A stretch of 58,431 nt of DNA, counting the filler, from Sluysia triapertura (taxonomy: Eukaryota): assembly GCA_046118255.1 (NCBI GenBank). It is 4 parts of 4 records of this genome, joined end to end, with 100 filler letters (N's around TTAATTAATTAA, not from the genome) between each part and the next. Parts side by side here need not be neighbours in the genome. Positions count along the whole stretch, not along the records: positions 1 to 16,310 come from JBJNIA010207034.1; 3 more parts are not named here. One strand, given 5' to 3'. Shown piece after piece: positions 1-58,431 of the stretch. The notes beneath the pieces were generated by a model, which was given only the letters and a program-made list of their open reading frames with translations, was not told the origin of the DNA and ran no database searches. Every line of letters starts with the position of its first letter. The stretch's first letter is position 1. The translations under genes were made by a program, and so were the position numbers.

Positions 1-563
1 GATTAGACCGTCGTCCACTAGTGACGTAAATCGTTTTCTAATCAGCCGAACTTATCTCCAGAGAAACATTTTGTAAGTAGGTTCTATCTTTGTAGGAACA
101 CTTGCAGAGTGATTACTAAAAAATAGGAGGATCCGAAAATGAGGTTGAAATGTTTGTGAAATTGTTTGTTTGGGAGTGAGAATCTTAAACATTATCCATC
201 AAAAAATTGAGTGTGAGGAATTGAAAATTAATTAAATTGTAAAACTAAAGTTAAATTCATTATTTTTAAGTATGACAATAATAATAATAAATGTTATTTT
301 AATGTACAATGTGATTCATGAAAAAATAAATCGAGTAGAGCAAAAGAAAAAAAGAGAGCTGATTGTTAATCGAATTTTGTTTTCGTTGACAGGTTGTACC
401 ACGTAAGTGTGAAAGTCGTATTAGTCGGTTTAATCTGTAAATGAAGTTTTGATGATTTGATGATTCCTGATTGTGAGTTTGAAAGTGATATAAAAGCGAA
501 TACTTAAAAAATTAACAACACAATCGATCATAGCGTAATGTAATGAGAAAAAAGATAATCCAT
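1..563 (-). pseudogene. Decayed signal-peptide-bearing glycoprotein-like ORF (copy A; runs off the window start)
   Basis: ATG at 563 reads MDYLFSHYITL*SIVLLIF*VFAFISLSNSQ..., a hydrophobic N-terminus, followed by several NxS/T sequons. Clear nucleotide homology to 43540-43887 (shared aaaactaaagttaaattcattattttta and tcgagtaga). Confidence 0.35.
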
Positions 564-2119
564 GACTATGGTAATGTTTCTTTATTATTTTTTTATTTTA
601 ATCATTAATTTTATTAAGTAAATAACTTTTGGGGAAACATTGAGTTTATTTTTAAGTTATCGCCAATTAAACCTGAATTTTTGAGAGGCTCCCTGCCCGA
701 ATTCTTTTGAAATATTTTTTATTATAAATTTAATTTAATTTCAAGTTTGATTTTTATTAAGTGATTTGATAATTTTATTTTTGGAAGACCCTTTGTCCAG
801 ATTATTTTGTAAATCCTTTTTGCTATTAGGGTAAAACAAGGCTGTTCGAAATTATGTCTTTATTATTATCAAATTTTTAGATATTGATATTTTTTAAGTG
901 TTGTTGCATTACCTCTGGTTTTCCCGTGGACATATTACTGCGTGCTTAATATTCCTAAATAACAGACTATTGTTGATTTTTGATCATAGTTAATTTGCTT
1001 ATATTTTTGTAGTCATTATAGTATTGAGTTGTTTTTTTCCTTATTTGAAGATAATAAATAATTTTTGGGTTGAATAAATATTATTAAGATAAGAAATTTG
1101 TGATAAATGTACTTGATTTAGTCAATATTGAATTCACTTGAGATTTTATTTAAGTGACTTAAATTAATATTGGATTATTGTTATTATTGATTTAAGACGT
1201 AACAGTATTGTACTTGTTAATTGAATTCGTAAAGACTTTAATTTATAATTAGAATTTGCATTTATTATGTGAACACTGAAAATTTACTGCAATCAGAGAA
1301 TAATCAATAATTTGTACCTATTTTACGATTACTGAAAATATATCGAAATTTAGAACTAATTTAATTATCGATTTATTGTTAATAATTTTGAAGAAAGATG
1401 CAACATTATTAATACATTAAGTATTAAAATAGTATTAGCAAATAACTTCTAAAATTTGAAGATTGTTAGTAATTAATTTTAATTTTAGTTATTTGCGAAT
1501 AAAATTATCGTTCACATTACCTTAGTCAATGGAATAATTACACTAAATATGTATCCGATTCAATAATTTTCTTAAAATTCATAGTAGATGTAATATAGAT
1601 GAAATATTCTGTCCATTGAACATGAAACAAATTTCAATCATTCTGTTGTATTTATTAAAATATATGTAAAAATATTAATCTCAAATACAATTTTAAAATT
1701 TTTATCTCAAATAAATTAATTAAATAATCGTCAAATCTTTTTAATAATGATTAACAATAACTAAATACCAAAATCAAAATAATCAAAAACTTCTATATAT
1801 TTTAATAATCACGATAGGAAATGTAATCTACGAAATGTTCTTTATTCACAATGTCTTTCTAATAAATACCAAATAAAATAAAATTATTGAAATATAAATC
1901 AACCATTTCACAAAACTTTATATTCAATTCAAATCCAGTGGTAGACAACATGATTTAATTGATAACAATATTGATCCTTATATTTTATAATAAACAAAAT
2001 TAAAAAATCAATATTAAAAGTTAAACCGAAAAAAAGGATCGTGATAAGCCACCCTCAGTTCAATCATTGGTTAATAAACAAGATTAATGATGTTAAATGC
2101 TCCAACCGGGATACGTGCA

Positions 2120-2607
2120 CATTTTCAAAATGTACGTTTTAATTACAGGTAGATTCGAGCTGTTATTGATACAGGAGCCACTACAACCGTTACGCATTAT
2201 AACTTTCTAATCACCACAAACAATTTATAACCTAGATCAAATACCAATAAACATGAATGGCATGGTACATGGCCAGTTAACTATATTAGATAATTATGTA
2301 CGTGCATTTATATACGTTTAGTAAAACTGCCCGTTTGATTTAATAAATGGTTTAATAAATTAAACGATATAGTAATCCATAATAAGTTCGGTTTTATAAA
2401 ATTTCTGCAAGGTGTACAAATGATAATACCGCAAGTTGTTGTCCTACATATTGGCGATGAGATTACTTTATATGAAACTCCGATTCAGGCTCCAACAACA
2501 GCACCGAACTTCGAATCTACTAATCCCGTATTGACTTCTTTTCGATTATCCGATGTGCTATGGGAATAATCATCAATTGACTCATCACGGACGTCCGTGT
2601 TCTAGTG
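2120..2607 (+). pseudogene. Retropepsin-type aspartic protease, disrupted
   Basis: IRAVIDTGATTTV at ~2152-2190 (catalytic D-T-G-A). After a frameshift it reads GQLTILDNYVRAFIYV**NCPFDLINGL, matching the C-terminal hhG motif of retroviral-type proteases. Confidence 0.7.
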
Positions 2608-2648
2608 AACTTTCGGATTCATAGGGAATTGACTCTGATGACGCAATA

Positions 2649-3754
2649 ATGCTTACTTTTCTTAAGATAAACAATCATAGTATTAAAAATCATTTTGGAC
2701 ACCATTACTAGTATTGATAGTTTTATTTGTGTCTTTAATCGGTATTGTCAAGATGACAGATCTTGTGGATGAGGCATATAAAAATCTAGGCAATGCCATA
2801 AATAACTGAAAAGAACAGAACATTTATAATGAGTATTGCGAAATAAAGTTTATCTCAAAGAAAATGTTCTTACGTCATAAACTTGATATTAACTGTATTT
2901 ATTTGGAATCATTGCTAATTGGTAAGCCATACCACATAAACAGCATGCTTATAGATCAATGCTAATAGCATTTGCACTAGATACAAAAAGAAACACTCGA
3001 AAAATACAGCGAATAAATCAATAGATAAACATTTAAATTGTAAAGTTAATGTTTTCCCTAGCGGTATGCTGCACAACATCGTAATATTAATAAGTTAATA
3101 GTTATTTCTTTAATTCTTATAGTAGTATATGCAATTTGGATTAAATTACACAGTTGATTTTAGTAGGAAATTACGCATATTTACAGTAAATAAAAATTTA
3201 ATACCTTTAATGATGAGAATGATTACTACAGTACAATGTAATATACATGATGTACGCATTTACAAGACCGAATATCTTGAATTCCGAAATTATGACACAG
3301 AAGTCAAAGTTAAAGTATTGAAAAATGATATTCAAGTTAGATTTACGTGCTTAAAACCTGCCAAACTTAATTTTAGTTCATGGAATATCCAACAATATTA
3401 TATCAACAATACAGTAAATCCTGTTGCTATATGCTCTGATTTCTGACCTATCCTCGGCGAGATTATAACAATTGCATATCACACTAAAGGGAACAAGGAA
3501 ATATCTATAGTTATCATAAATGCTAAAAAATGATCCAGTGATGTTAATATTAATTTTAACCACAATATTATTTATCATCGCTCTGGCAATAGTTATTCTT
3601 GTAATCATTACTTTTGTATCAAATAGATGTAGGCATCTTAATCATAACAATGACGATCGACGTACTATCCCACAGAGGTAATTTTGAACTACCACCAGGA
3701 TTTCCATTGGCCCCACCCCCTGATTATGGATATGCAACAGGTAATCACTCATAA
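2649..3754 (+). pseudogene. Env-like type-I membrane protein, disrupted
   Basis: Hydrophobic N-terminus and Cys-rich segments (FICVFNRYCQDDRSCG); includes ORF 3129-3446. TM helix TTILFIIALAIVILVIITFV at ~3560-3620, then a tail ending ELPPGFPLAPPPDYGYATGNHS* after a frameshift. Confidence 0.5.
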
Positions 3755-3775
3755 TTAATATACGGTGGTTGACAA

Positions 3776-4530
3776 ATGACAAGTTTACAATCAGTTCTGT
3801 TAGCGTACGTATGTAAAACATGCATAATTAATACACATTCAAAATCTATAATTATATTACGACCACGAGTAGCACTTTAAAAGCACTTCAGCGAAATATA
3901 TACGCAGAGTAACACAACTAAAATCACTAATATCTCTGTGTTGTATAACTAATTAGCGTAAGTGTGAATCAGACATAAGCAGAAATGTCAGTCATTGAAT
4001 TGTATTTTGCGAAGGTCTCGTGGAATATCAATTATTTCATGTTACCTTAACTTTAGAAATTGAGTATGAACCAAATCAAAATTCGAGAATTATATAGGTA
4101 CATAATTTATTTTTGATCAACTTTCAAGAACTATTGAAATCGCAATGCTTTTATATCGAGAGAGTAATAACTTCGTTCGTATAACAAATCCACTAATAGA
4201 AAATATTATATTAATTGCCTATAAATTGGATAAAGCAAGTCACTATGCATTAATACTCCCTGACGCTAGGATCCATCTACTTTTGTGCCAGATCATAATC
4301 TTACATTTATCGAAGTTTGAATTTTACACTAGAATGAAATTTATGATACTATGGAATTTTGACCAAATATAGAATATGTGACTTACAAGTACCTATTTTG
4401 GATAAACCGGATATTATCAGTTTCAACACCAGCTACTACTACTTTGAATATATAAAATACTATACATAATGCTACAACCATAGGTTATCCTATCAGACCA
4501 AATAAGAATTTAAGCTTACATTAAGAAAAT
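3776..4530 (+). pseudogene. Decayed orphan ORF between the env-like gene and ORF-X
   Basis: ATG at 3776 just after the env-like stop (MTSLQSVLLAYVCKTCIINTH, CxxC). Coding-like composition, including ORF 4145-4372, with multiple stops. Confidence 0.3.
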
Positions 4531-4552
4531 CATTTACAAGTAAATAAAACAA

Positions 4553-5700
4553 ATGACTATAATAAATTTCTATTACGTCATATTTTGTTACTACATCCTA
4601 ACCTCATTTCTTTTCGTTACGTCAATAATACATGCTGTATTTCAAATTCATAAGTTTTATTTGTTCATTAGGCATAGGAACCATCTTTTTATTAAAGCAT
4701 GTATAGAATATAAAATACAAGTAAAGATATCTCATATTTGCCGACAGCTGTTAACTATCCATTTTCAGTCACAAAAAGAGTGTTACTAAACTCGTATTCT
4801 ATTTACTTAGGATATTTATCGTAATATTATCATCTTACACCCATGTTCTGCCTCTTTCTGTTTACGATAAGGACCGCCTCATCTTTATGGCTTTTCAATA
4901 TGCTATAGATTTCATAAGTCTCATATTACTTGCATCGCCTACACCACTCACAGTAGGCAGTTTCATACTGAGGCCGTTTCTAGAATTTCCTCCGAAATAT
5001 TCAGGCGATAACTGATATCGACCTTAGAGAGGCTAAGGATATCGACGATGTTAAGCCACATCTTACTGGATTTTTGAATAAAATCCTGGTATAATTGAAT
5101 CCCAGTTTCCTCATCGAAGCTTTGAATCTTCCTTTTGGAACTAAGGAGCATAATAAATCTTACTAATCATAATCTTTTCCGTAGAGGATAGTTTGTTGAG
5201 AGCTAGGAAGACGATGAAACTCTTGTATCCCGTCTGTCTTAAATTTACCTTCCGATAATTAGCGAAAGAATTAGTCACATTGTTGGATTTCATTAGGGAA
5301 ATGGACTTGCAATTCATCCAACGATGTAACGATCCCTCTATTTCTACCTCTAATACTAATTCTTTTCCTGTTCTTAAATCAAAATCAACCAATTCGAATT
5401 CCAGGCCTACTCAGATTTCACCAGTACCCCGAACTTTCAAAAAACCTACTCTTCAACCTATTCAAGATCCGCATAGTAATAATCAGGCACAAAAACGAAA
5501 AGCAGCAACACACATGGAGTTATAGCCAGCAGATCTGGACTAGACATTTCAAGATTTCCCTCCTCTGACTTACCGTCCAGGAAAAGTACGACTTCGTCTG
5601 TCACCGAACCGTTACTCAGTCACTTCCACTATCCCGGTTCGATTACTTACCACACATCGATATGATTGAGAATGATCGGACTGATTTCCTAGTTATTTAA
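4553..5700 (+). pseudogene. ORF-X family copy 1 (orphan protein, heavily disrupted)
   Basis: Frames give SYTHVLPLSVYDKDRLIFMAFQYAIDF, *NFLRNIQAITDIDLREAKDIDDVKPHLTGFLNKILV, LRSIINLTNHNL and RKTMKLLYPVCLKFTFR*LAKELVTLLDF, colinear with the 9009-10688 and 37800-38920 copies. Confidence 0.7.
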
Positions 5701-5758
5701 TAATAATTAACGATCCTATATATTGACATTTTATTGTTGATTTGTCGACAAATCTTTC

Positions 5759-6516
5759 AGAAAGGAAAAGTATTTGTTATGACACTTTAATTTTGTATAT
5801 TTTATGTGGTGGCCAACCTTTCACTCGAAATTTTAATTCAACATTACACACGAAATATCACATTTCATAACATTTCACATTTTAATTCTGTAGATGCATT
5901 AAAATTTTAGAAACTTTAAAGCATTTTAAATTCACAATTTCATAACATTAAAACCATAACCAACATCGAAAATAATCAAAAGTATATTTCAAAGTTAATT
6001 CAAAATATTTCAAGTTCACAATTCTTAAACATTCAAATCATTAACATTATTCAAAAACATTAAATTTACATTTCAAAATTATGGTAAAACATCATCATAA
6101 TCAAAATGGAATTTCTTTAACATCTTTAATTAGGTTATTATCTTATTAGGACAGTTATTTATTAATATCTTTTAACACCTTTAACTACGTTGTTATCCTT
6201 TTTAGTTATTACTGAATAAAATCTTTTTAAAAGATAATAAGAACTAAAAGAATTTTATTTCTACGATATGTCAAGATAAACGAATTTAAAAGAATTTTTA
6301 GTCAAGAAATGCTTCAAAAAAAGAAATTGTTAAAAGATAGGAAGATAAACGAATTTATGTACTCATGCATTTTGGTTTATGTTATTTATTTTTATGTTAT
6401 ATTTTAAGAAATACAGGATATAAAGAAAATAAGTTTTACGTAAACTAATTTCATGTATTGTTATTATTTATTATTATCATTATGTATTGTAATTTTATTT
6501 CATTATCATTATAAAC

Positions 6517-6582
<66 letters not shown>

Positions 6583-6900
6583 CATTTGTACTATTACATA
6601 ATTATTTCATATCATTATAATTACCATTATCAAGTATTATTACTACAAACATCCACTATTCATTAGCATTACCCATATTGTCATTGTTCTACTCATTAAA
6701 ATCATCTTTTGTTGTTATTATCACTGTTCGTACTGTCAGTAATGACAGTTTTTCAGTTATCACCCATTATTAAACAACAATTCAATCATCACCCATTATT
6801 AGTCACTATTAAGCTAAAGCAAAATTATTGACCATCCAATCATCATTGTTAGTAGTCTTTGGTATTAGAATTAGCAATAAATACAACAATCTTATTCGAC
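5759..6900 (+). repeat. Polypurine tract plus LTR-like block (type A)
   Basis: atttgtcgacaaatcttt, then purine tract agaaaggaaaag (5759-5770), then TGTTATGAC at 5775. Internal aaacatt..aattcacaat sub-repeats and an (ATT)n tract. The block recurs at 7958-8760. The right boundary is approximate. Confidence 0.55.
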
Positions 6901-7139
6901 AATAATAAATAGATTGTCTCTCGGAAAAAAATAGTAACACAATTACAAGTACTAAAAATAAAATTCATACTTAGAAAATTAATTGAGCTTATTAAAAATT
7001 AACAATAGTCACATTTGCTTTTTAGAGTTAAATGAAATTATAAATTGATAATTTACGAATTTTATCATAAGTTATTAACAATTATCATTAATTGATAATC
7101 ATTTGTAACAATTTATCCTCAACATCGACATCGTTGAAC

Positions 7140-7980
7140 AATGCAATCACTACCGCAGCTACTTCTGAGCAGCTCATATAAGCTGTAAAATTACATCAAA
7201 GATTATTTATAATTATGAGTGTACAGAAACTTGAAAAGAACAGTATTCAATGTTTATCGAATGATAATTCTACCACTGTTATCCACAAATATTTTTCAAC
7301 AAATGATATCATAACCTTGCAAAGTAACAATAATAGAAATTATAGTACAATTGAGTTCTTTGCCAAACATTCGAATGTATTTTAATAGTCCCAATTTCAG
7401 TGAAAATGACATTGAGTCTTGAAAAAAGCATTATGCATCACGATATTAGATTTGACTTTTTTAATCAGTTAAACCTTGATATAGCACCAGATACTGATTT
7501 GACGAGAACGTTATACCGTTTTATGGTAAGATTATACAGCTGTAAAAATAGAACATTTAGACTTATGTCGACAACAATATCATCATGTAAATCACAAGAT
7601 CAGGAATACTCAACATTAGATGTATATCTTCCCAGTATTAAACATAATTTTAATAAAAATCAACAATGAGGTGTGTTAGTATAACAAATGGTCATGATTC
7701 GAATCTTTCATTTCCCACCAGAAATATTTCGTGTAATCGGAACCAACATTTTTTGATGTGTAGACCTAGTAACGATAAATTTGGTGATATGGATCAATTA
7801 AATGACAAGTATAAGTTTACAAAGTATGCACTTTGTCCATTTCAGGCTACTGCATCGGGATCATGTGTAAAGTATGGTGATCTATGCCCTTACGCTCATG
7901 GCTGGAAAGAAATGGTAGCAATTCCGGAAAATTTTCAAGTTCAATTTGGTCATCCTTGTGGTGGCCAACTTTTAGCTTAA
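7140..7980 (+). pseudogene. CCCH zinc-finger orphan gene (frameshifted; ORFs 7400-7669 and 7666-7980)
   Basis: KYALCPFQATASGSCVKYGDLCPYAHG = C-x9-C-x6-C-x3-H, homologous to the finger in 55277-55948. Confidence 0.6.
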
Positions 7981-8760
7981 AGTTAAAATTCTATTTTTTA
8001 TTCACAATATCATAAGTATTAATATTTTATATTCCACCTACTCATATCTATTAGAACCTTTTCATACCTTAAAACATTCAAATTCACAATCTTTCAACAT
8101 CCAAGCTTTATTTACATTCAAAACCATCAATGTTCATTTAAAAATTCATTTAAAACATTATATTCATTATCCCATAACATTAGAACCACAATTATATCTT
8201 AAATCATCAAATATCTACTTCAATATTAGCCCAAAACATTTTAAGTTCACAATCTTTTAATACTCAATATTTTGTATAATCGAAAAACGTTAAACTCATA
8301 CATTAAACTTATTCTAATACAAAAATAACATCACTTAAATCATTTTTAAAAAGAACTCTATAAGAAAATAAATGATAAGAACTTAAGTAATGAAAGAAAA
8401 GAATTTTATTAATTTTATCTGAAGAAATTTTTATGTTAAGAAATATTTATATTCGTCTTTAAATAAAAGAAAGATTGTGTTTCAAAGCTTTAAAGATTTA
8501 TTCATTTTATTTTTATTTTCGTGTTAAGTGTATTATTCTTTAATTTCATAATTATCATTATCACCATTTTATTTTCATCATCATTATCATTATCATTTAT
8601 CATTATCATTACGCAATACTATCAGTAATGACAGTATCAATTTGTACATATCATCCACTGTCATTGCCGATAGTCATACTTATTAAAACATTAATTCATT
8701 ATAATTGCACAGTAGAAATTATAATTTAATTGGTTACTGTTTATGTTACATAAAGTCAGA
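7958..8760 (+). repeat. Second copy of the type-A LTR-like/regulatory block
   Basis: Starts tgtggtggccaac as at ~5806. Same aaacattcaaattcacaat sub-repeats, aaaagaattttatt, ATT/ATC tract and atcagtaatgacagt motif. Confidence 0.6.
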
Positions 8761-9008
8761 GGCATAATCGACGTGGTAGACAGATACGTCGTCTGTATAA
8801 GGCAGGAATATATGAAAAGAAAAATAAGGTAAAGAATCCTTTTTTGAAGAAGGACAATTAAGATATTTTTCTTTTGTTTCCTAAAATATATAAGTTACTT
8901 AATTAAATATATGTAAAATTAAATAAACTAACGATAAAATTTAACCTTTCAAATCTATAAAAATTCACATATCTGCACTTCTATTTAGAATAAACCAAAA
9001 ACAACAAA

Positions 9009-10688
9009 ATGAACAAATCAAATATACAAGCACGCATCATAAACAACATAATTCCATTCTATAACGGAATTGACCGGTTTTGTGGCAATAACGAAACGCC
9101 GTGTCATTTTCGGATCTCAAATATCACCCCTAATATTTTGAAGTGTGAATTGGACGATATGTTCGTCACACACTTATTTAAAATTGATAATATCCAACCG
9201 CCTATTAACGTAAATCAGTTAAGGGGGTTTTCTTTTAATAATAGACCAATAACAATTACGATAGAAGGGATCCCATTGATCACGAACATTAATCCCTCAA
9301 GTAATATTCAAGTGGAGTCAACGGAGTTACCTGCAACATTTGCGGTACTCTTGGCGCAAGTGGAGAAACCTATAGATTTTAAGAAGCGCCCCTTAATTTA
9401 TAATGAAGATAAAATAAATCTCTACAATTGGCAGGAGGGTCTAACTTACTCCCACGACATAGAGACGCCAATGTCGTGCGTAGGATATCTTATTTTTATA
9501 TCTGCCCAATTCGCCTTGGGGTTTGATGACAGGCATCACATTCTCCGAATGTGCTTTATGCCTTACCACAAATTATTTCACGGGAAGCCTTTCTGAGGCC
9601 CCGCATCCGGGTTAAGAATTTTCTAACGGTGGATCATGGTCTGAAAGAGGACCATTTGAAAGAGGCCAAAGATCTTTCGGGCATTAGGGATTTTTGGTTG
9701 GTGGTGTTATATGATAAAATTCTGGTATCTACCTATCCAGAATTAGTAATTAAAACTTTGCAGATTCCCTATAGGTGGATAATGGGAATAATAAATTTAT
9801 CGTGCACAAGTCTATTGCCCCAAACAACGCTTAATCCAATTACGAAAACCCGAAGATTATTAAAATTAATATATCCCTTCCCTCCTAAAACAACTTGCCA
9901 ACAATTAGCTAAGGAATTTATAGAGCTATATAATTTTTTTATATAAAAGAGATCCATCGTTTTTGTCACAAAATCGAGAAGTTGATATTCCTTCTACCTC
10001 CTCTTATCTTAGTACTGATGCGTCTGCTACTAATACTACTACTAATTCTAATACAAATATACATAGTAATATTGACAAGCATGAATCTTGCTCTTCTTTG
10101 CCTTCTATATCCACTGACTTATCCTTAGTACATAAAGGGTGCTGCCTTGATAATAGTTGCAACAAATACGGATTTAGCACTCCAGTTCCTTTCACAGGCA
10201 ACACGCACTTTATATATTAATACAAGACATAAAATAACATCATCATCGAAGTCACCTACGTCATGTCCATCAACATCAATACATATCACGGATAAAAATA
10301 AAGCGTCAAAATGCAATCTGGTTCGTCATCACGGCTTTCACCAACATCTTCATCAAAAATTCAATCTGGTTCGTCATCACGGCTTTCATCAACATCTTCA
10401 TCAAAAATTCAATCTGGCTCATCGTCACAGCTTCCACCAACATTTTCATCAAAAACTAAAACATTATCTGGTTCACCGTCACAACCTCTTTCCAAGCCTC
10501 CACCGGAGAAGAAAAGAAGATCACCATCTCCGTCTGTTGACTTAGACGACATTAGTGATAATAGTGATACTGATAATGTGATTAATAATAATTTAGACTA
10601 TATAGATTTAAATGATGACGACTACCTCACATTTGAGGATGACATCGATGAATTATTATTGTTTCGAAAAAGACATCATAAAAATTAG
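9009..10688 (+). pseudogene. ORF-X family copy 2 (best preserved; about 3 frameshifts)
   Basis: ORFs 9009-9596, 9551-9946, 9963-10220 and 10311-10688 can be joined. The first two junctions are single-base slips in T runs. Globular N-terminal ~310 aa, then Ser/Thr-rich linker, basic KKRRSPSP and an acidic tail. Confidence 0.75.
10311..10455 (+). repeat. 48-bp coding tandem repeat x3 (QSGSSSRLSPTSSSKI)
   Basis: caatctggttcgtcatcacggctttca..caacatcttcatcaaaaatt repeated three times. Confidence 0.9.
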
Positions 10689-10704
10689 AGACCAATTTTT
10701 CGTT

Positions 10705-11520
10705 AGGGAATGTAAATGTAAAGCTAACAAACACACATACTTTGAAAGTTAATAGTAACACACATAATGTAAATGTAATATATCTAATTTTAGATTTAAA
10801 TCAATAATTTTTAAATTATAGAATTATTTAACACAAATTTATGTTTTAATTTTAAATCAATAATTTTTATGTTTTAGATTTAATACAAATTAATGCTTTA
10901 ATTAATTTTTATGTTATGGAATTATTTTGAAAAAAAATGATGTTAGGTAAGTCGTTATCATTTTTGATAAAATATTATTATTTATTATAAAATACGATTT
11001 TTATTATAAAATACAATTAGAAAACACGCTAGGTTTTTCAAATTAAAATTTATTAAAAAATTCATTTTGTTTCAATTATCTTTCAAGGTCATTGGACCTA
11101 TATAAATAGTTTTAAATTTTTGTAAAACGACACAATTAAAACACGTTGAATTCAAACGCCAATTCTTTGACAATTAGTTCTTACGCGATTTTGACTTCGA
11201 GCAGCAACAATAATTAATCCGATTCTATCCTTGCGAAATTTCATCGTTAGTTTGTTTTTTATAAGTTTTCCGTAATATTTAACATTACATTTTTAAACTA
11301 TACTTAAAATCTTATATAACATTGTACAGCTATCTTTTCATGATAGCTTATTAAAATATTACTTAAAATCATTATTTTTTGATTATATTTATAATCAATT
11401 TTAATTTATTATATTTATTACTTTTATTATTCGAATTTGTTTGTAATATATATTTGTGAAATAAAATTTTTATAATCTGTTATTCTAAATTTACAATAAA
11501 CTTTATAAAGTACCGGTTCA
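10705..11520 (+). repeat. Short purine tract plus LTR-like sequence (type B related)
   Basis: gaccaattttt..agggaa then TGTAAATG at 10711. ctatataaatag...acacaattaaaacac...ttctttgaca (11098-11172) matches 39295-39375. AATAAA near 11460 and 11496. Confidence 0.5.
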
Positions 11521-11789
11521 ACGTAAGAACCGCATTAAAATACTTTAAGTTTACAGGTTCTTTTTCTGAACCTTATTAAAATCTACATAAAAAAGGTTCG
11601 TTTCATCGAATCTGATTAAAATCTGATTTTTAAACATTTAAGTTCTTTAATTAAAGACCTCCTTATAAATTAACTAGAGCTTTTTAGCCAGTGAATATAA
11701 ATCCAACGGTTGCCCATTAAGTTAGTAAGCCCAATACGTTGGTGGACTCACCTATCATTTTTTAAGTTTTATTCTAAGCACACATTTTC

Positions 11790-12153
11790 TTACATTATTG
11801 AAAACCTGATAAAAGTATGGCATCACGATGACAAGATCAAAGACTTGTGTCCCAAGCTCATCCGTGGCATGCCTTTAAGGATCAAGAAATTATTGGATAA
11901 CAAAGTACTGCTACAGTAGTTTGTACACATTTGATTTGTGTTATGATTCTACATGAATAAAATTTCAGTATTTTTATCTATTATTTTTCTTTCACCAGAA
12001 TTTTTTAGAGAAAGCAGTTATTTTCCAACATTTTCCGCGACAATGTTTTTATACACTTGTATTTATACACTTTGGATTAAGTTTCAAGTATCCTTGAAAA
12101 ATGTTGAATTTATCACAAAAATGGTCTTTAGTCTAATAATTTGGCCACCACTG
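11790..12153 (+). mobile_element. Tc1-family transposon, 3' fragment
   Basis: [36 protein letters not shown] resembles the Tc1 transposase C-terminus. It ends in the TIR ctaataatttggccaccactg plus TA, the same TIR as at 44226 and 45259. Confidence 0.8.
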
Positions 12154-12226
12154 TATAATTATTATTTTCATATGAAAAAATTATTTTACATATTTATGAA
12201 TGTACTTATATTTAACTTTAAATTAA

Positions 12227-13502: not shown

Positions 13503-14518
<1,016 letters not shown>

Positions 14519-15948
14519 CTGGAATAATAAATTCACCTTCAAATAAATGTTACTAAAAATAAAGTTGAAAAAATAAAATTTTACTAAGAATAAAAAAATT
14601 AAATTAAAAAGTAAGTAATAAAATATTATAAATATTATAAATGAAGTTTAAAAATTTCATATTATTATATTTAACGCTATAATATACAACTTTGAAGTAA
14701 TTATAACTTTTTAAAACAAAAAATAAATAAAACAATTTTCAAATTATATTATAATTAAGGTTCTAAAATATTTTAATATTATGCCTTATTTTGAGTAATA
14801 AAGACCTTTCTTTAAACTTAAATTGATTTCAATTTAGTCGTGATGATTTTAAATTTTGTGTTAATAAACTAATTTGAATGGTGAGTTTATTACTTTTCAC
14901 AAAGAACATAATTGGAATTTATGCAATAAATAATAAATTATGTAATAAAAGCAAATAATTAAGCACATGTAATTATGTTATTATATTTAGCGAAATTTTT
15001 CCTTTAGTATTCTTCTATGCTACTACTACTATTCTAATTTCTTGGTTATCATACAAAAGATCTCTAGTGACTTAGAGACATTTGTCAAATCACAGATATT
15101 AAGCCAGTAATAAAGAAAATTTCAAATAGTGAAGAATATTTTAATGTATAAATCCGTATAGTAAAATAGTATGTATAAATTAACAGGTTTCTATTTTGAG
15201 GCTAACTTACCGGAATTCATAAAATACAATAATTTGTTATAAATTTGGTTTCTTGTAAATTTCTTTTGAACTGTACCCAGTTTACTGTATTAACCTTCTG
15301 TGGTGTTTCAATTATACAAAATTCATTCTACATATTGTCATCTCGTCATATTCAACATAAGTCACAAGTAACAAATAACAAATCACAAAAATTAATATCT
15401 AAAAGATATTATTGTTTTTTACATCCAATATAATTCACAAACAATAAATTATGAATGACAAATTACTAATACAAATTCAATTATACTAAATTTGAATAAT
15501 CAATTGTGTCAACACTAATATTAATTTATCAACATCATAGTCCTTGTTTTTACTATTGTCATTATGAGTCATTATCGATTTAATTATTACTTATTTATAA
15601 ACACATATGGAAATGAGAGTTTCAGTTGAAAGCGTTGTCAGACTTGTTTGGAATGTAAATCAGATAGTTTACATGAATTGTCAAATCAGAAAAATACAAA
15701 TAGCACTAGCATGAAAATTATTTCGAACAGGACGATGACAGCGATATTGACAATGTTGAAGAAAATATTAGAAAAATGAAAAAAAACGTGCAAACAAGAA
15801 GATAACATTGACAAATCTAATAACAGTAATAGTGACAGTAATTATGAATGTGGTGAGTTGATGATGTTGATGATGATGAAAAGTCAATAAGACATAGTGC
15901 TACAGGATATATTACCAAAGTGAAACAGATACATTTATGCATTTATAG

Positions 15949-17949: not shown

Positions 17950-18296
17950 AAATCAGGTTCTGGTCGAGATTATGCCGAAAACATAGTATGATATGTGAAA
18001 TGGCTGATAGTAAGGAAACTTATGAGTAAATCCAAAAGTGTAGATAAAAGGTGGCAGAAAAATTGTTAAAATCCAAGATGGCGAGTGCAAAATAGTGAAT
18101 AATAATGAAGTGATGCTGGTTTATATACTAGTCATCAGCCAATAAGAATCGATGGTATGCTCTAGAAACTTACATTCTATTTTTAAAAACGAATTTTCTT
18201 TTTTGGAAAATAAAGTTTTTAAATTATTTTAAAGATTATTATGGTATTTTAAATGATTTGAAGGGTTTTGATGGCAAAATGTTTTACAATATCACA
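17950..18296 (-). repeat. Type-B LTR-like promoter block
   Basis: Minus strand: gaggacaaa..., then TGTGATATT...catcaaaaccc...aagaaaattcg..aaaaatagaa..tctaga..ATTGGCTGATG (CCAAT box)..TATATAAA..CGCCATCTTGG. Confidence 0.65.
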
Positions 18297-21599: not shown

Positions 21600-21855
21600 A
21601 TAAAATGGCCGTTTATCAGACAAAGGTTACAAAGTAGATAATAAATAAAATGGCCTCTATGATTAAATTGATAGTAGTTTATATACGAATCATCAGCCAA
21701 TAAGTATCGATAGAACATTCTAGAAAATTCTTTTCTATTTTTAGAAACGAATTTTCTTTTTTAGAATATAAATTTCCTTTTTGAAAAATAGGATTTTAAA
21801 ATGATTTTTGAGGATTGTGATGGAATTTTAAATGATTTTAAATGGAAACCTCACA
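21600..21855 (-). repeat. Type-B LTR-like promoter block
   Basis: Clear match to 18115-18296 (gtttatatac..catcagccaataag.atcgat..tctagaaa..ctattttta.aaacgaattttc). Starts TGTGA on the minus strand. Confidence 0.65.
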
Positions 21856-25689: not shown

Positions 25690-26348
25690 TTAAGTGATAT
25701 GATTCATGTAGTATTCAAGATGTAATGGCCGGGTTATGATTACATTTAATTTAAAATTGGGCGTTAAGATATTATTACAAATAAAACCAGACTTAAGGTC
25801 TGTACAAACATTAGTATAGTTATTGTTAGTCTCTTTAATGAAAAATCGAAAACACAAATAACACTTTATTTTAACCAATTCAAAAGAAAATTTTAAAATG
25901 TAGCACATTGCGGTTTCATCAGTACAAGAAAGGTATAAGTAAATAATACATAAAGGTACATATAAGTCAAAAACTAAAAATTTTACCAAATAACGTAAAG
26001 TTTGAAAAAGCCGAGTTGGAACGAATTCTCCGCCGGGTAGATGGAAAACGAGACACACGTAGTGCTCGAACAATTTTTTGAATTGAATTTGTATATCAAA
26101 AATAAACACATTGTCTTTGTTATTTAGAAAATTGAATAAATCATCAATCCCTAAAATACAATGTAATCTCAATGGTATTGTTGGGATTAAACGGTTCAAT
26201 GGTATGCTTGAATTTATATTTACATCTTGGATAGGTAACGCTTTAATAACATATGAATCTTCAGTTAGTTCTACTGATCCCGCTTCTTTAGAAGAATCAC
26301 CTTTAGATTTCTGCATAAAACGATCGTTCAGTATTAACTGTTTATGAT
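25690..26348 (-). CDS. Hypothetical protein (probable exon(s) of an unidentified gene)
   Basis: 208-aa ORF in AT-rich DNA, preceded by an acceptor-like ttttacag at ~26350. No motif recognised. Confidence 0.35.
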
Positions 26349-34137: not shown

Positions 34138-34349
34138 CAATTTATTTTAGCCGATTTAATGAGTGTTAAAACCATCCTAAATTTCACATACAATTTATTT
34201 TAGCCGATCTAATGAGTGTTAAAACCATCCTAAATTCCACATACAATTTATTTTAGCCGATCTAATAAGTGTTAAAACCATCCTAAATTCCACATACAAT
34301 TTATTTTAGCCGATCTAATGAGTGTTAAAACCATCCTAAATTTCGCATA
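34138..34349. repeat. 53-bp minisatellite x4
   Basis: caatttattttagccgatctaatgagtgttaaaaccatcctaaattccacata at 34138, 34191, 34244 and 34297. Confidence 0.95.
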
Positions 34350-34914
34350 CATAAAAAGGTTAGAGCCTTCTAAATATAAATTCTAACAAACTACTTATTC
34401 GCATCTTGCTCTCAACGCCGAATAAAGGGCGGGCAAGCAGGACGATAAAAATAAAATATTTTTACATTCATTACACGTTTAGATTTTATAAATTAAAATC
34501 GATCATTTTTCATGAGACATCGATTTTTTTAGCAATCAATAAATTTTTTTCTTTAATAATACCAAATAAAGGTCACAACGCTAATTATTTTATTATTGTA
34601 AACTGTTTACAAACTGATTTTTAAAAAAATTAATTTAATTAACTACCTTATTGAATTTTTGACAAATAGCACTACAAAAAATCTTGTATGTCACGCGTAT
34701 GCAACAGGAATAGCTTAACTTACTTTTCAAAGTTCTCACTCCTTCGTCGCTCAATCTTCAAATGCGCTCATTGTTATTCCATATGTTGTGTCGCTTGTAA
34801 GTAAATAAATTATGTATTATTTTTAAAAAATAAATTTGTTACACAGTTCTTTATTGTGTAATTTTGATTTTTTGCCTTTTTTTTACTACTTTTTTAAATC
34901 GCAGTAAATTTGAA

Positions 34915-36133: not shown

Positions 36134-39100
36134 TTATGATGAAATTGTTATATGATTGTAGTACCATTCTCGATTATCTTCTAATGTATCTAGAATATGT
36201 TGTGCTTCTGGGTAAACTAATTCGGACCATGTTTCCCACAATGGATGGACAATAAAATCAATGAAGCTGACTTGAGATTTTTCAATGGTAGCGGTTTCAC
36301 GATCACACATTGGGGAAATATCCAAATTATGGCTTCGTTCACGGTCACCCTGGGCAAAAAATTCATTCATTATACGGCTTGTCCAATCACGATAGAGTTG
36401 CAAGGGTTTAGTTGGATTTGACAGGTCCGCGCAATGAACCATGTTTTGAAGAATCTGAAGTAGTTAAAATAAAGAATCATTTTGTTTGTATTATTAAGCA
36501 AACAATTTGTTATCTAAAATGGCTACAAATGATCAGAAATGTTTAAGTAGACAAAAAAGAGAACAAAAGTTATTGTCATCGCTACCCTTTAAAATCAATA
36601 CAAAAAACAATTAAAATCATTAAATTCTTCAAAAGAAAATTCCGTACTAAAAATAGAAAAGAAGTTTCTAGAATGTTCTATAATTGGCTGTGAGTATGTA
36701 TAAATAGCCGCAGCTAATCATAAAGAAACAAAAGAATCATAAAAACATGCCAAATACTGGCTACTAAAACGGACAATGACAAGTGATACTAAACAACCCA
36801 TTAGGAAGTCATTATACTTTTAAATTACTACGAGATCGACATCAATCGTTTTCTTTATTACAGTATCATTCTAGATTACGTATCAAATTCAGAATTACCA
36901 ATAATTAAGATGTGGGTACATTAACGCCATGGTCACACTTTGGATCATACATGACTTTTCTGTGCCAGTAATTACTGAATCAGTGCACAGGAAAAACAAA
37001 CTTAATATCGAACAAGATGTAAGTACCGATAATAAAAATAATTCAACCAGTCTAATTCCAACTAATATTAAATATAGTTTGAACATTACAATTATGTAAA
37101 ATCCTAATTTTTATTTTTATATTATTCCATCCAATTTATAATGATCTTCATAATTTATACTTCATACCATTCTTACGGTTGAAGCTATTTGATTAGACAT
37201 TTTTAATACGAAAATGTACATTTCAGAAGTTTAGCAATATACTAAACTTCGTTTCTTCGTTTCAATAACCGGTCTTATCGATTCGAAAATATACAATACC
37301 TTTTCGTAATATATATTAATAATTTTAGGATTTTGTTAAATTTTAACTAAATTATACTCATTTTTATAATTCTTTAATTTCACGCTATCCGATTTGTTTT
37401 CATCCTCTTCGTAAATATCAAGCCATTTCGATTCCTTGCATCTATTGCCTTCATTTTAAGAACATTTTCTTCTTTTACGATAACTCACCAACTGATTACC
37501 CATATTGTCCACAATTACCTCTTGGAAAAAAAATATTATAAGAATCGGTACAAACATACTTACATTTTTGACACTAAACACATCTATTTTTCTCACCCTA
37601 CACTCTTACTTTTTCACCTGTTCCTACTTTCATTTCTAAACCAGTTTTTCTTAAACCACTTGTTTCACATCTCTCCGCCCTCACGAAGTATCAAAACCGA
37701 CGCAGACGGAGGAGGGAATTGAAGCGTTTCTAAAAAGCCAATGGCCTTCATGAAAAACACGGGAATATATTTTTAACCCTTCTATTATGTACATGTTATG
37801 TAATTCTAGATGGCACAGCAAATGGTAAAATTTTCATCCAAACTACATCTTTTTATGGAGGCATCGACCATTGCCAAAAAGATGTCCCTTCTACTTCATT
37901 CTTAATCTCTAAATCGAGTCCTAATCATCTTAAATCCAAAATTAAGAAGAATTTCGCCCTACATATTTTTATCCTATCTTCCGCTTTCCCTCAGGTCATC
38001 GTCAATGAATTGTTTGGCTTCCCTGCGAACCGTGGCACCATCATTTTTGTGGCCTCACGAGATGTTCTCAGGGTTACCTTAACGATTGACTCTTCCTCTC
38101 TCTTTTTTCGTATTTGTCATTACTCCAACTCATACTATAATAGTGGAAGCCTACAAATATCTCACGACATTTGCTGCACTTTTTCCTATTACTCCAGGAA
38201 ATCTAGATCGTGTCTCGCTCCCTTAGAGAATTTTGACGCGTGGCAAGAATGCTTAATATTTACTCACATCCCATTTCCCCCCATCTTTGAGGAAAATAAA
38301 CTGATCTTTGTGGCTTTCCATCACCTATTCGACGTAAATAATAAGCACCAGAATATTCAGTTGAGCTTCATGCCCTGTAATAGGAAATTTCATTCTATTG
38401 ACATTGTAAGGCCAACAGTTCGAGTCCAAAATTTTTATAAGGAAATACGTGGACTCAATGATCAAAATCTTTCATCGACTAAAGACATAGAGGATATTAG
38501 AAGCTTCTGGCTAGCTTCCTTACACGTTAAATTTTTAGTTTGAAAAAGTTGGTGGAGGGTAATAGTGAAACTCACCAACAACCATCTCGTGTCTTTCTCA
38601 TCAGCCGATCCTTTTCTCAAAGCAGGTCCTAAAGTTATTGTAACCATTTCTGTAACCCTACATGAACCACATTTAAAATTATATTTTTTGTTTGACCATC
38701 TTTCTTTCTCTTTCTTTTGTTTCTTCTGTTCCATAATCACCCTTACTTTCTAACTCTTCTTCTCCACTTTTTCTTCAACTTCTCAATTCCAGAGGTCCCA
38801 CATCGCCAGATCAGTTCATCGAGCATTTTTATGCCCCATCTCCTCCGCATCAAGAACCAATGGTTAGACGCGAGACATCAGTCCCCCTGAGTCGATGTGG
38901 ATGACTCTGAATAATAATAGTTAGGCCCAACTGATACTTTATACTGCGGCGATGGCATTGATATCGACAATTTTTAACTTTTGCAGTGATTTATATAATA
39001 TAATGTTTGATATCATAATAACTACATTATGTGATTGTATATATATCTATATAATTGTTTTTATTGTGTATGCATTTTATTTCTTAAATTCTAAATCTCA

Positions 39101-55276: not shown

Positions 55277-55948
55277 TTATTCTAGAAGATTGCCAATTAC
55301 ATATATTGTGTGAGCGTATGGACATAGGATTCCGTTCTTAATACATAAACCACATTTGTCGGTATGAAATGGACAAATTGCTATCAATATTGCTTTAGAC
55401 TCATCACATTTGTAATAAGCATTATTGATGTATTGAACTTTAACATTAAAAAAATTATCTTTAAAATCATAATTATTGGTATTATAATTTTTATTTTCAA
55501 AAGTATAGTTATCATTATGATTATCATGGTTTATGGGTTTAAGATTATAGTTATTATAATTCACATCATTGATATGGTAACTTTCAACTTTAAGATTAAT
55601 GTATTTATAATCATATTTATCATATCTTTTAACTTTAATGTTAACTTTGTAGTAATCATCATAGTTGTCGTAACTTTTAACTTTAAGGTTATCGTCTTGG
55701 TAGTAATCATCACTGTTGACATAATTTTTAACTTTAAAACTAATGTATTTATAATCATAGTTATCATATCTTCTAACTTTAAGATTAAAATATTTATACT
55801 CATCATTATCATATCTTTTAACTTTAAGATTAATGTATTTATAATCATCGTTATCATATCTTTTAACTTTAAGTTCATAATCATTATTATGAGTTTTAAC
55901 TTTAAGATCATCATCGTTGTTATGACCTCTAAATTTTATACAATACAT
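55277..55948 (-). CDS. Tandem-repeat protein with C-terminal CCCH zinc finger
   Basis: Open 223-aa ORF with about 9 imperfect (L)KVKRYDNxDYKYIN repeats, then ICPFHTDKCGLCIKNGILCPYAH (C-x9-C-x6-C-x3-H). Confidence 0.65.
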   Translation of the reverse strand: MYCIKFRGHNNDDDLKVKTHNNDYELKVKRYDNDDYKYINLKVKRYDNDEYKYFNLKVRRYDNYDYKYISFKVKNYVNSDDYYQDDNLKVKSYDNYDDYYKVNIKVKRYDKYDYKYINLKVESYHINDVNYNNYNLKPINHDNHNDNYTFENKNYNTNNYDFKDNFFNVKVQYINNAYYKCDESKAILIAICPFHTDKCGLCIKNGILCPYAHTIYVIGNLLE

Positions 55949-56554
55949 AAATAAATTTTAATTGCGTAGCTTGTAATTGAAATTGCAATGAATTGAACAA
56001 TTTTAGTTAAATTGTAATATTGAGAGATTACAATATAATTGTAGAAATAGTGATTAAAATTGAGCTCAGATAATCATAAATTGTGATCGCTTAAAAATTG
56101 TGAAATTACTCTGTGTATAAGTGTTAACTTTTGTTAATGATATGTAGAAATTCTTTCTGGTTGGGTAGCTAGTAGATGAATAAAAATTATAATTTAACAA
56201 TTGACGAGTGAACCACTATCAGTGGCGACATTGATTGTCATTGTAAATCAATGTAGTCACCATTGGTAGTGGTAGTTACGAAATAATTCATTATTTTACT
56301 TGACAATGAAATTAATAAAATTAAAAAAAAGGTGATAACAAAATGTTATTATTATTATTATTATCGATATGGGAATTATGTTCTGGGCCCATTTTATAAT
56401 GTAAATTTTATAGTACTGGTTTGCGAGCGAATACATTATACAGTTTGATTTAATAATTACTTTGTTAATTAAAATTTTACATTTGATCCTCATGCAAAGA
56501 AGGTTTAGACATATGGTTATAATTGTGATGCAAGGTAAAGTTGAGAGCGCATTA

Positions 56555-57847
56555 TCAGATAGAGTAAGGAGCATTACAAGTCGGAAGCAAAAATGAAAAT
56601 ACGATAAAGTAATTGTATTTAATATAGCGTGATTTAAGAATTAGTATTCTACAGTCTAGCATGTTATTACCTTCAACCAAAAGAATTCCTGGGACTATCT
56701 TAGATTCTTTAATAAAATAACAGTAATTAATATTATTATTATTGTGATGATTTGTAATTATCAATTCTTTTGAATTTTGGGTCTTATTATACTTATTTTT
56801 TATAATCTGGTCATTTGAAATGACAAAATATTTATTTATTAAAAATACATCTACACAAAATTTAAATGAATCAAGAATTTCGTAATACATCAAGTTTTTA
56901 TTTAAAGGATTTACATTGACAATATGAACATTGTGAAAACCTTCCAATCTGGTCGCCCGTCGTTCTATCATCCATTCTAAAATTGGTTTAACTAAAAAAC
57001 AATGATATAAATAATTAAATTCATAACTAACAGAAAAAACAATTAGTTTTACAAGATAATAAATACTAATGTTGGCCGAAAGAAAATGGAACCAATTAAT
57101 TCTGTGAATGTATAATTTCTTGTTCACATTAATCGTCTTTTCTACGTCTGTATCCTTAGATAAATAAATCTGAAGCACACCGTTCACATTAACTTTATAA
57201 TTATTTAGGTTACATCTATTTTGATTCAACGTGGCTAGTAATTTTTGTTTGTTCCAAGTTTCGTTTACATTACTTAAACTTAACATCATATCGGGATTTC
57301 TAATAATATGAAATGTTTCATCTACATTAAGTACCAATAAGTTACAAAACATTTCTTGAATCGCAACGAATTTATTGTAATTTGCATCATACTTTATCAA
57401 ACAAACTTTATAATCTAATTTACTTGATTTATCCATCAGGATGGAATCTAATTCATCAATATAATTTGTATACATATCCTCAGTGTTATTAAATTTGAAG
57501 TTTCGAGCTGAAATTCTTGCAATACTAATTAACAAAATATGTTCACTACCGTAAACTAATAAGTTGAATTTATTAATCGCATTCCTTGAATATTCATAAC
57601 TACTGTAGACTGATCGACGGTAATCTTCATTATTAGACGATTCATTAATTTCGCTATTTACTTTAAACATACAATGAGTAATGTTTTCAAGCATGCTTGA
57701 TCGGTTCACTAATTTTAAATGTTCTATCATTTCGTAAATTACGTATTCAATTGCTTCTTCTGTCTCATTTGCCTGATTTTCGTTTTTTAATGTCATTATT
57801 CGTCTGGAATCGAGAAATATTTGTCTGGCGAATTTAATTACGCCCAC
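56555..57847 (-). CDS. 430-aa intronless orphan protein
   Basis: Longest ORF in the window and uninterrupted in very AT-rich DNA. No recognisable motif. The first in-frame ATG is at MTLKNENQ. Confidence 0.65.
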   Translation of the reverse strand: MGVIKFARQIFLDSRRIMTLKNENQANETEEAIEYVIYEMIEHLKLVNRSSMLENITHCMFKVNSEINESSNNEDYRRSVYSSYEYSRNAINKFNLLVYGSEHILLISIARISARNFKFNNTEDMYTNYIDELDSILMDKSSKLDYKVCLIKYDANYNKFVAIQEMFCNLLVLNVDETFHIIRNPDMMLSLSNVNETWNKQKLLATLNQNRCNLNNYKVNVNGVLQIYLSKDTDVEKTINVNKKLYIHRINWFHFLSANISIYYLVKLIVFSVSYEFNYLYHCFLVKPILEWMIERRATRLEGFHNVHIVNVNPLNKNLMYYEILDSFKFCVDVFLINKYFVISNDQIIKNKYNKTQNSKELIITNHHNNNNINYCYFIKESKIVPGILLVEGNNMLDCRILILKSRYIKYNYFIVFSFLLPTCNAPYSI

Positions 57848-58067: not shown

Positions 58068-58431
58068 CGATAGTATAGTGAATTCTAATTTGAATTACTA
58101 ACCATCATTATCAGTAGTGATGTGCAGGTGAGAATGAATTAAGTGTCACTACTGATGATGGTGACGACAAAGTTGAATTAAATTAATTTTTTATGAAAAT
58201 GATTAACAATAATAACGACAGTAATAATGATGAAAATAATAATAATAAAAACAATATTAATAATAATAAAGTGATAAAATTCTTGCCGTTATTATTGTTA
58301 TAAAACTTTTAATAAAAATGAAGAAAAAATACATAAAGTCTTATAATTCTGTACACATGATCTTTTCTGTTGTGATCTTTATTCTCTTACATATCAGATG
58401 ATAATAAAATAAGAGATGAACAATGCGAATG

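Follow-up and report, generated by a model that had tools for sequence, protein, structure and literature searches.

A putative hairpin-bearing intergenic module, duplicated in a decaying gene array that may hold the accessory genes of a retroelement-like element, in Sluysia triapertura

What kind of element would place related stretches of non-coding DNA before genes that have nothing else in common? The question is raised by a 58,431-nt stretch of DNA (the window, filler included) from Sluysia triapertura; the host genome is that of an AT-rich invertebrate. A preliminary description saw one block of ~0.8-1.1 kb occurring twice, first before a CCCH zinc-finger gene and then before a gene termed ORF-X, with a parallel array on the minus strand. 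The plus strand reads ORF-X', block 1, CCCH1, block 2, ORF-X, downstream of a weak retropepsin remnant, and all frames from 2.1 to 10.7 kb, the remnant included, share one orientation. Missing from that account were a decayed ORF-X paralogue 5' of block 1 and a block-less copy at 37.8 kb. The ORFs of the arrays are co-oriented, intronless orphans with broken frames throughout, the exceptions being a minus-strand pair, a 413-aa ORF and a 223-aa CCCH ORF (CCCH2), both intact. The reading to which we give even credence is that the stretch is part of an array of accessory genes in a large, multi-copy, decaying and undescribed retroelement-like element containing an anciently duplicated intergenic module; the mobile element most likely derives from an LTR retrotransposon.

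CCCH1 (7139..7980, plus strand) survives as three frame segments (7182-7385, 7355-7669 and 7657-7980) and carries an Unkempt-like CCCH finger (Pfam zf-CCCH_UNK, E 2e-7, at the cut-off), its closest PDB match being Unkempt (E 0.019). Its final codons overlap block 2, inside which the frame 7657-7980 terminates with HPCGGQLLA and a stop, as had been noticed before. CCCH2 (55277..55948, minus strand) combines 15-aa N/D/Y/K-rich repeats with an Unkempt-like finger that is 50% identical to that of CCCH1 across 32 aa.

ORF-X (X2; 9009..10688, plus strand, four frame segments) has a conserved N-terminal part of ~310 aa, an S/T-rich repeat tail and a C-terminus that is first basic and then acidic. The heavily decayed paralogue ORF-X' (X1; 4686..5291, plus strand) was recognized by tblastn (E 4e-5) and by a profile match (iE 6e-4); its low-complexity tail may extend towards 5790, but the tail match is not significant, and an ending exactly at block 1 was rejected on that ground. 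A third paralogue, ORF-X3 (37812..38543, plus strand; 26% and 44% identity to X2 segments), lies without block or hairpin upstream, and ORF-X' likewise has no hairpin in front. Since two of the three ORF-X copies have neither block nor hairpin, the block is not an obligatory expression cassette. No homologue of ORF-X was found by a word-index search of the protein library with X3 (near-length proteins covered), by full phmmer with segment 1 of X2, or in the ESM Atlas, viral contigs, metagenome contigs and PDB. The 413-aa ORF (ORF413; 56555..57796, minus strand) had none in viral contigs or the protein library (near-length proteins covered), and the top score of its Atlas search, 0.79, is a mere lead. 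Neither protein has relatives in PHROGs, where the search gave one match at E 0.04, and AlphaFold models from this work were unusable (pLDDT 31.5 and 30.8). ORF-X stands as a multi-copy protein family without detectable relative.

The retropepsin-like remnant (2111..2230, plus strand), with a DTGA motif, lies in the upstream part of the array and matches Pfam gag-asp_proteas (E 0.0038) and RVP (E 0.0065), below the curated cut-off; the longer frame and PDB gave no match. Plus-strand frames in 400-5800 and 7100-8000 and the ORF segments have no Pfam match to reverse transcriptase (RT), RNase H, integrase or gag. The element may reach past the window, or its RT-RNase H-integrase may be deleted. 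Neither a terminal repeat pair nor element ends were found, and the DNA 3' of ORF-X and 5' of the protease matches nothing else. Scans of the sequence gave no tRNA or Rfam matches.

Both blocks open with the 13-mer TGTGGTGGCCAAC, at 5805 and 7957, and the 100 nt upstream of the 13-mers are without homology (score -33 against a shuffle mean of -30). Sequence comparison finds three ~84-bp subrepeats in the 5' part of block 1 (5805..6095, plus strand) and four of 81-84 bp in that of block 2 (7957..8325, plus strand). Between the blocks, 5805-5921 and 7957-8073 score 52 (maximum 9 in 60 shuffles), the subrepeat sections 114 (shuffle maximum 47) and the hairpin sections 18 (shuffle maximum 1). The A-rich middle (1, shuffle maximum 20) and the spacer up to the next ATG (-24, shuffle maximum 19) show no similarity above shuffles. 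The microsatellite sections, 261 and 71 nt long, are marginally above them (-121, shuffle maximum -128), and TRF places a (TTA)n tract at 6456..6586 in block 1 and an (ATT/ATC)n tract at 8551..8611 in block 2 (both plus strand). Self-BLAST of the blocks returned a single match of 179 nt at 71% identity. What can be aligned is the 5' ~300 bp (subrepeats, ~65-72% identity) and one 18-nt hairpin arm (6732-6749 and ~8618-8635). That the same block occurs twice is overstated: the start is shared, but the two are different sequences, unalignable in the middle and the pre-ATG spacer; a block running through the hairpin motif in both copies holds as far as this arm, block 1 retaining the self-palindromic 5' arm (6732..6749, plus strand) without the 3' arm, so that in fold analysis the long hairpin is not formed. 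That the 13-mer ends the CAGTGGTGGCCAAA repeat found at 12151, 44228 and 45261 was rejected (11 nt in common, flanks differing), as was the idea that the subrepeats derive in antisense from the CCCH2 repeat protein (no rank better than 73 of 2826 or 76 of 947). Between subrepeats, a bias by codon position was of borderline significance (p 0.051).

Long hairpins of 60 nt lie in block 2 (b2; 8618..8674, plus strand, 17-bp stem and 21-nt loop) and twice on the minus strand (m1, 58101..58162; m2, 56211..56273). They rank 1, 3 and 4 of 14,460 folds of 72-nt window/strand pieces and are significant under triplet shuffles as well (z -3.1 to -4.7); the least favourable such z for the block 1 hairpin region is -1.4. 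The three share arm motifs, and their cores lie 386, 358 and 318 nt 5' of the ATGs of ORF-X, ORF413 and CCCH2, respectively, ORFs that are unrelated. In their 13-pair cores 10-11 of 13 pairs are Watson-Crick, with A-U/G-C exchanges at two positions, a covariation to which a sample of three lends no statistical support. By sequence, m1 and m2 (51-59% identity to b2) are not among the top matches of b2 and not clearly above background, and hairpin loops vary (4, 21, 25 and 9+ nt). A covariance model run across the window found no additional full copy. The antisense strand folds better by 6-9 kcal/mol, and either strand may be the functional one. All three are ~60-nt hairpins with at least 16 pairs, as required of microRNA precursors, the antisense strand being best, and none matches an Rfam miRNA family. 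Scans for the hairpin motif turned up 28 loci in metagenomes and 9 in viruses, none convincingly related to the arrays: the one tblastx match, of 40 aa, lay on the hairpin region itself, and the DNA matches measured 18-21 nt. All are put down to chance.

On the minus strand the alternation of hairpin and ORF was as claimed, with a hairpin at 58162, ORF413, a hairpin at 56273 and CCCH2. Its parallel with the blocks is one of hairpin likeness, with nothing else of the block shared: the upstream DNA scores 90 and 130 against the blocks, no higher than the window's remaining (TTA)n tracts do (up to 92 and 149), so only the hairpin is common to the two arrays.

Variant contigs in one public run (run X1) show the array region to be multi-copy. 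The comparison covered positions 6600-12000, with the 5' part of block 1 and the minus-strand array outside, at an identity cut-off of 80%; contig depth in this run, possibly the source of the window, does not equal copy number. Contigs with variants number 23-24 at CCCH1 positions 7251 and 7684, 30-35 at ORF-X positions 9623-9746 and 43 at 8668, for comparison with a depth of 13-26 for single exact-match contigs. Summed depth is alike over CCCH1 and the start of block 2 (295 and 267 in bins 7686-8047) and higher across the spacer (1053) and ORF-X (2400-7900), the step that a module of two parts should give. In one contig, the letters that connect 8546 with 8618 are like those before the m2 hairpin, which links the two hairpin types.

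Under the reading that we favour, the block would be an intergenic module duplicated long ago within the element. Its 5' half (13-mer and 81-84-bp repeats) may be the 3'-flanking DNA of the preceding gene, and its 3' half (hairpin and 300-400-nt spacer) would serve the following one. The hairpin would most likely act as RNA punctuation between cistrons, as a transcript end, a processing site or a protein-binding site, possibly bound by the element's own CCCH protein. Long ago, new genes would have been recruited behind module copies, the probable route being template switching or unequal recombination within the low-complexity tract, and the arrays later amplified as entire units without continual swapping.

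Multi-ORF giant retroelements are known in spiralians, as far as the excerpt of PMC6431247 goes. According to it, Burro, a giant Ty3/Gypsy element of planarians, is also large and multi-copy in an AT-rich, spiralian-like host and has accessory ORFs and tandem repeats, together with zinc-finger domains and an aspartic protease (here at most a weak remnant below the Pfam cut-off); Burro encodes a single polyprotein of ~4,900 aa that comprises gag, env-like, PR, RT, RH and IN, along with BIR, BCL2 and MATH domains, and it has LTRs, none of which was found here, and the cargo of the present array consists instead of separate orphan ORFs behind hairpins. The same excerpt describes the Terminons of bdelloid rotifers, which likewise have long accessory-ORF arrays with structured RNA motifs; unlike them, the window has no hammerhead (no Rfam matches at E<=1), no Athena RT and, by Pfam, none of their accessory enzymes. 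Bdelloid LTR retrotransposons with an exchangeable ORF3 share and replace accessory ORFs in a modular way (PMC5408684), but have a single ORF3 after gag-pol, and the text consulted of that paper describes no repeated intergenic hairpin module. The self-palindromic 5' arm, variable 12-41-nt spacer and adjoining direct repeat recall, from extracts of the respective papers, the Conserved Hairpin Site (CHS) that GalEa Copia elements of fungi have (PMC5445492) and tandem TRIMs (PMC6934838). The GalEa CHS, which adjoins the 5' LTR on its downstream side, has 9-bp arms (CHSeq1/CHSeq2) and one A/A mismatch that is fixed (PMC5445492, in part), whereas the arms here are 13-20 bp and of other sequence, no LTR end is evident, and the hairpin recurs before several genes. 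Cer1 CERV of C. elegans offers, in the portion of PMC10309623 used, an earlier example of an invertebrate LTR element that has an accessory protein with a regulatory role, by analogy only. Among literature titles and abstract openings, no description of this arrangement was found.

It is unlikely that blocks 1 and 2 are instead a pair of aged LTRs, 5' and 3', belonging to a small non-autonomous element with CCCH1 as its cargo (the ORF then reading into the 3' LTR), nested between X1 and X2 or part of a tandem array with shared LTRs. Homology does begin sharply at the TG(T) of the 13-mer (5805 and 7957), with none upstream, and TGGTAG at 8774 and TGGTA at 6860 lie 0.8-1.05 kb past the respective block starts; TGGTAG resembles a tRNA-Met primer site quoted in the excerpt of PMC5445492, and tandem TRIMs with shared repeats exist in animals, as the excerpt of PMC6934838 has it. 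Yet neither TGGTA site is preceded by a CA end, no CA end was identified and the surroundings are unalike; no purine run of 12 or more adjoins 7957; divergence between the copies is ~30% and their middle cannot be aligned; the minus-strand array has this hairpin type but nothing else of the block; and in run X1 depth at the start of block 2 does not exceed that over CCCH1. A shared LTR end at TGGTAG 1939 and 8774 was discarded, the flanks being unrelated.

Somewhat further from belief is a bolder form of our own proposal: large mobile elements of animals, in a class not yet described, might assemble polycistronic accessory arrays with a hairpin module that can be used repeatedly. The hairpin would be cut or bound (Drosha-type processing and the element's Unkempt-like CCCH protein are examples), so as to mark off cistrons or give rise to small RNAs, and would serve also as a joint for cargo exchange between subfamilies. 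Little is understood of the ways in which large retroelements of animals acquire and express more than one accessory gene, and a repeated intergenic hairpin before unrelated cargo, two of the genes encoding RNA-binding CCCH fingers, would, if true, be a concrete and testable mechanism; the array copies are of old date and for the most part broken, the element class is a proposal and the hairpin role putative.

Modular cassettes had been proposed at the outset, and a related module does precede different genes, recognized by sequence homology at CCCH1 and ORF-X and by the likeness of the hairpins at ORF413 and CCCH2, an arrangement that, judged from sequence, would fit modular assembly sometime in the past. 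No recent exchange is visible, given that copies are ~30% diverged, their middle is unalignable and cargo paralogues are 26-50% identical. That these are live expression cassettes, with cargo exchanged via recombination in the common block, is therefore improbable, even though the module stands before up to four different ORFs in an order differing between the two arrays. In run X1 the low-complexity tract varies in length (joints 8447>8618 and 8546>8618), two kinds of loose end occur 5' of ORF-X (6 and 11 contigs), and ~25 contigs matching at 6729 drop to merely 1-3 at 6772-6851; divergence of non-coding DNA below the 80% cut-off accounts equally well for such loose ends and drops in depth, block divergence is too large for recent exchange, and no contig joins a block to other cargo among the 8 of 6495 pieces and 15 of 44 joints listed.

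Central tandem repeats, a microsatellite and a terminal hairpin make up the anatomy of DINE-1/pearl-like elements, and the order of 13-mer, 81-84-bp repeats, microsatellite and hairpin recalls it, as does the observation that the subrepeats draw most contigs in run X1 (84-90). We consider it very unlikely that the block is such an independent non-autonomous element inserted twice: there are two copies only in 58 kb, each between co-oriented ORFs, depth at the block 5' end is low in run X1, and no inverted 13-mer copy stands at the far end.

Slighter still is the chance of an integrated DNA virus, either a concatemer of segments that share their termini or a fragment of a large virus, in which the hairpins would terminate transcripts or work as hr-like origins. 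Repeat-plus-palindrome spacers do separate single genes, in units of ~1.9-2.15 kb, but relatives are absent from viral contigs, the protein library and PHROGs (apart from the E 0.04 match), and the ORF-X copies are dispersed. A nonamer stem-loop is the CRESS-type motif, and the variable hairpin loops here contain no nonamer; with no Rep or capsid match either, the earlier suggestion of concatemeric genome segments finds no support. Misassembly of the array is scarcely credible: the draft is repeat-rich with N gaps elsewhere, and none of the listed contigs of run X1 bridges 7957, yet no N gap occurs before 16311, the blocks are too unlike to be confused, and exact contigs lie at 6867-7560, 7616-7846 and 8638-8838, with depth in 30 of 30 bins.

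An identical 13-mer opens both spacer blocks, at 5805 and 7957, and leads into subrepeats of 81-84 bp, three in block 1 and four in block 2 (51-70% pairwise identity among the five best); a subrepeat profile scan found no further significant copies in the window, and alignment against shuffles found no homology in the 100 nt upstream of the two starts. The 5' part of the blocks aligns far beyond shuffles (z 12; section scores 52 and 114 vs shuffle maxima of 9 and 47) and the hairpin part is alignable again (18 vs a maximum of 1), while neither the A-rich middle nor the spacer before the next ATG aligns above shuffles; the microsatellite spans 261 nt in block 1 vs 71 nt in block 2. Judged by sequence, the blocks are thus old homologues, roughly 65-72% identical but scrambled in the middle, so that the preliminary description of the same ~0.8-1.1 kb block occurring twice holds for the 5' and hairpin parts, but not as one conserved unit.

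Between the blocks, the CCCH1 frame (7657-7980, +) encodes an Unkempt-like finger (Pfam; best PDB match) and, as first proposed, terminates within block 2; broken frame segments upstream of 7657 suggest a longer, disrupted gene. Behind block 2 lies ORF-X (9009-10688, +; four frame segments), with two paralogues in the window, the decayed X' (~4.7-5.3 kb) and X3 (37.8 kb), at identities of 26% and 44% (X3 vs ORF-X segments). X' immediately precedes block 1, which gives the order X' / block / CCCH / block / X. Neither paralogue is preceded by a block or hairpin (upstream DNA compared; covariance-model scan of the window). An 83-bp direct repeat of 97.6% identity (36929-37011, 41550-41632) encloses 4.5 kb including X3. 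Upstream of X' are a weak retropepsin remnant and decayed frames, all co-oriented with the array; short decayed frames at 2690-3720 (+) carry hydrophobic, membrane-like stretches, a neighbouring frame has a PPxY-type motif, and none has a Pfam match. The motif TGGTAGACA, resembling a tRNA-Met primer site plus one extra base, occurs at 1939 and 8774 (+); at 1939 it follows CA and one nucleotide, and ~170 nt separate it from the protease remnant downstream, too short a space for gag.

ORF413 and the second CCCH gene (CCCH2), both on the minus strand, are intact, and the CCCH1 and CCCH2 fingers share 50% identity over 32 aa. No homologue was found for ORF-X in the protein library, ESM Atlas, viral and metagenome contigs, PDB or PHROGs, nor for ORF413 among library proteins of similar length, ESM Atlas, viral contigs or PHROGs; no fold was found for either, their AlphaFold models being of low confidence (pLDDT 31.5 and 30.8). 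Two further single-frame orphan ORFs without the hairpin lie at 25690-26316 (-; 208 aa) and 51984-52319 (-; 111 aa, opening with a hydrophobic segment and showing a Cys pattern).

The folds at 56209, 58097 and 8609 rank 1, 3 and 4 among 14,460 72-nt folds (both strands, overlaps merged). These three long hairpins, before CCCH2, before ORF413 and in block 2 respectively, remain significant against triplet-preserving shuffles (z -3.1 to -4.7); in block 1 the self-palindromic 5' arm alone survives (z -1.4). The 10-nt core occurs three times vs 0.17 expected, a post hoc count, as the pattern was drawn from these very sites. Aligned in register, the 13-pair cores contain 11, 11 and 10 Watson-Crick pairs; two positions show A-U/G-C exchanges, and non-canonical cells turn G-U five times on the antisense strand vs twice on the sense. 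Cores lie 386, 358 and 318 nt upstream of the ATGs of ORF-X, ORF413 and CCCH2, and that of block 1 is 402-481 nt upstream of candidate CCCH1 starts. Sequence identity among the three is only 51-59%, and a plain sequence scan placed the two minus-strand copies outside the top eight matches to that of block 2; what links the three is structure, arm motifs, position and one intermediate contig. No Rfam family matched, and metagenome and viral contig loci bearing the motif were judged chance matches. An unrelated strong AT-rich hairpin (-24.4 kcal/mol) lies at 51409-51480.

The reading we prefer, at about even chances, takes the array for the accessory region of a large element of retroelement-like type; a single intergenic module would have been duplicated there long ago, its copies ending up between different genes, and the whole array would have spread as one unit. 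For the hairpin, we predict a probable role in transcript punctuation or regulation. Alternatively, the blocks could be LTRs, given their sharp TG start and the presence of PBS-like motifs, but neither a purine tract nor a CA end was identified and the flanks of these motifs are unrelated, making this unlikely.

At the level of copies, the evidence is drawn from the window itself and from contigs of a single public run (X1), possibly the window's own source, of which 6363 were placed on 6600-12000 only. Exact-match depth is 13-24. Variants are carried by 23-24 contigs at two positions of CCCH1 and by 6-11 towards the 3' end of that gene, by 84-90 within the subrepeats, by 43 in the 3' arm of the hairpin, and by 23-35 at several positions of ORF-X. 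Summed depth, which is not copy number and is partly inflated by the microsatellite in the hairpin bin, stays at about 210-350 along CCCH1 and is 267 where block 2 begins; it rises to about 1050 in the spacer and reaches 2400-7900 in the conserved part of ORF-X. Every part of this region is multi-copy; depth at the block-2 start tracks CCCH1, and spacer depth falls between the CCCH1 and ORF-X values. Of the modular cassettes first envisaged, a related module between different genes stands, but still-ongoing cargo swapping is doubtful, no contig joining a block to a different cargo gene appearing among the 8 of 6495 pieces and 15 of 44 joints listed. An independent insertion bearing repeats and an integrated DNA virus are both improbable. 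Misassembly is very improbable, though no contig crosses 7957 among the same listed pieces and joints.

The array, as an element's accessory region, most resembles in its workings the giant spiralian retroelements rich in accessory ORFs, as known from Burro and Terminons (PMC6431247) and from bdelloid ORF3 exchange (PMC5408684), although class-defining features do not establish it as any of these. No description of the arrangement was found among the titles and abstract openings of the freely accessible papers searched.

The window (17-39% GC per kb) also contains spliced host genes, with exons of a Rab-family GTPase and a PDZ-domain protein, named by eye, and of phosphodiesterase-4 (PDE4), named by database search (14212-14647, 26960-27060, 28298-28678, 36134-36463 (-)); a PDE4 exon shows 74-79% identity to proteins of molluscs, schistosomes and vertebrates, none of the 120 matches listed being a close relative. 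This makes the host an animal with AT-rich DNA, and a flatworm-like spiralian is plausible. At 31483-32400 (-), next to an assembly gap, are decayed frames of gag-like type that have a degenerate Cys-rich knuckle but no Pfam support. A 75% identical repeat in G-rich flanks (157-353, 43535-43732) is possibly the leader of another minus-strand element. Repeat fragments with CAGTGGTGGCCAAA ends (11700-12160, 44224-44262, 45253-45374), presumably Tc1-like, reach a depth of ~100,000 in run X1. A ~150-bp interspersed repeat has five copies (18108-18272, 21662-21841, 36573-36730, 39146-39327, 54648-54868), two flanking X3 and one ending the minus-strand array, and a 53-bp tandem repeat has four (34138-34351; 96% identity).
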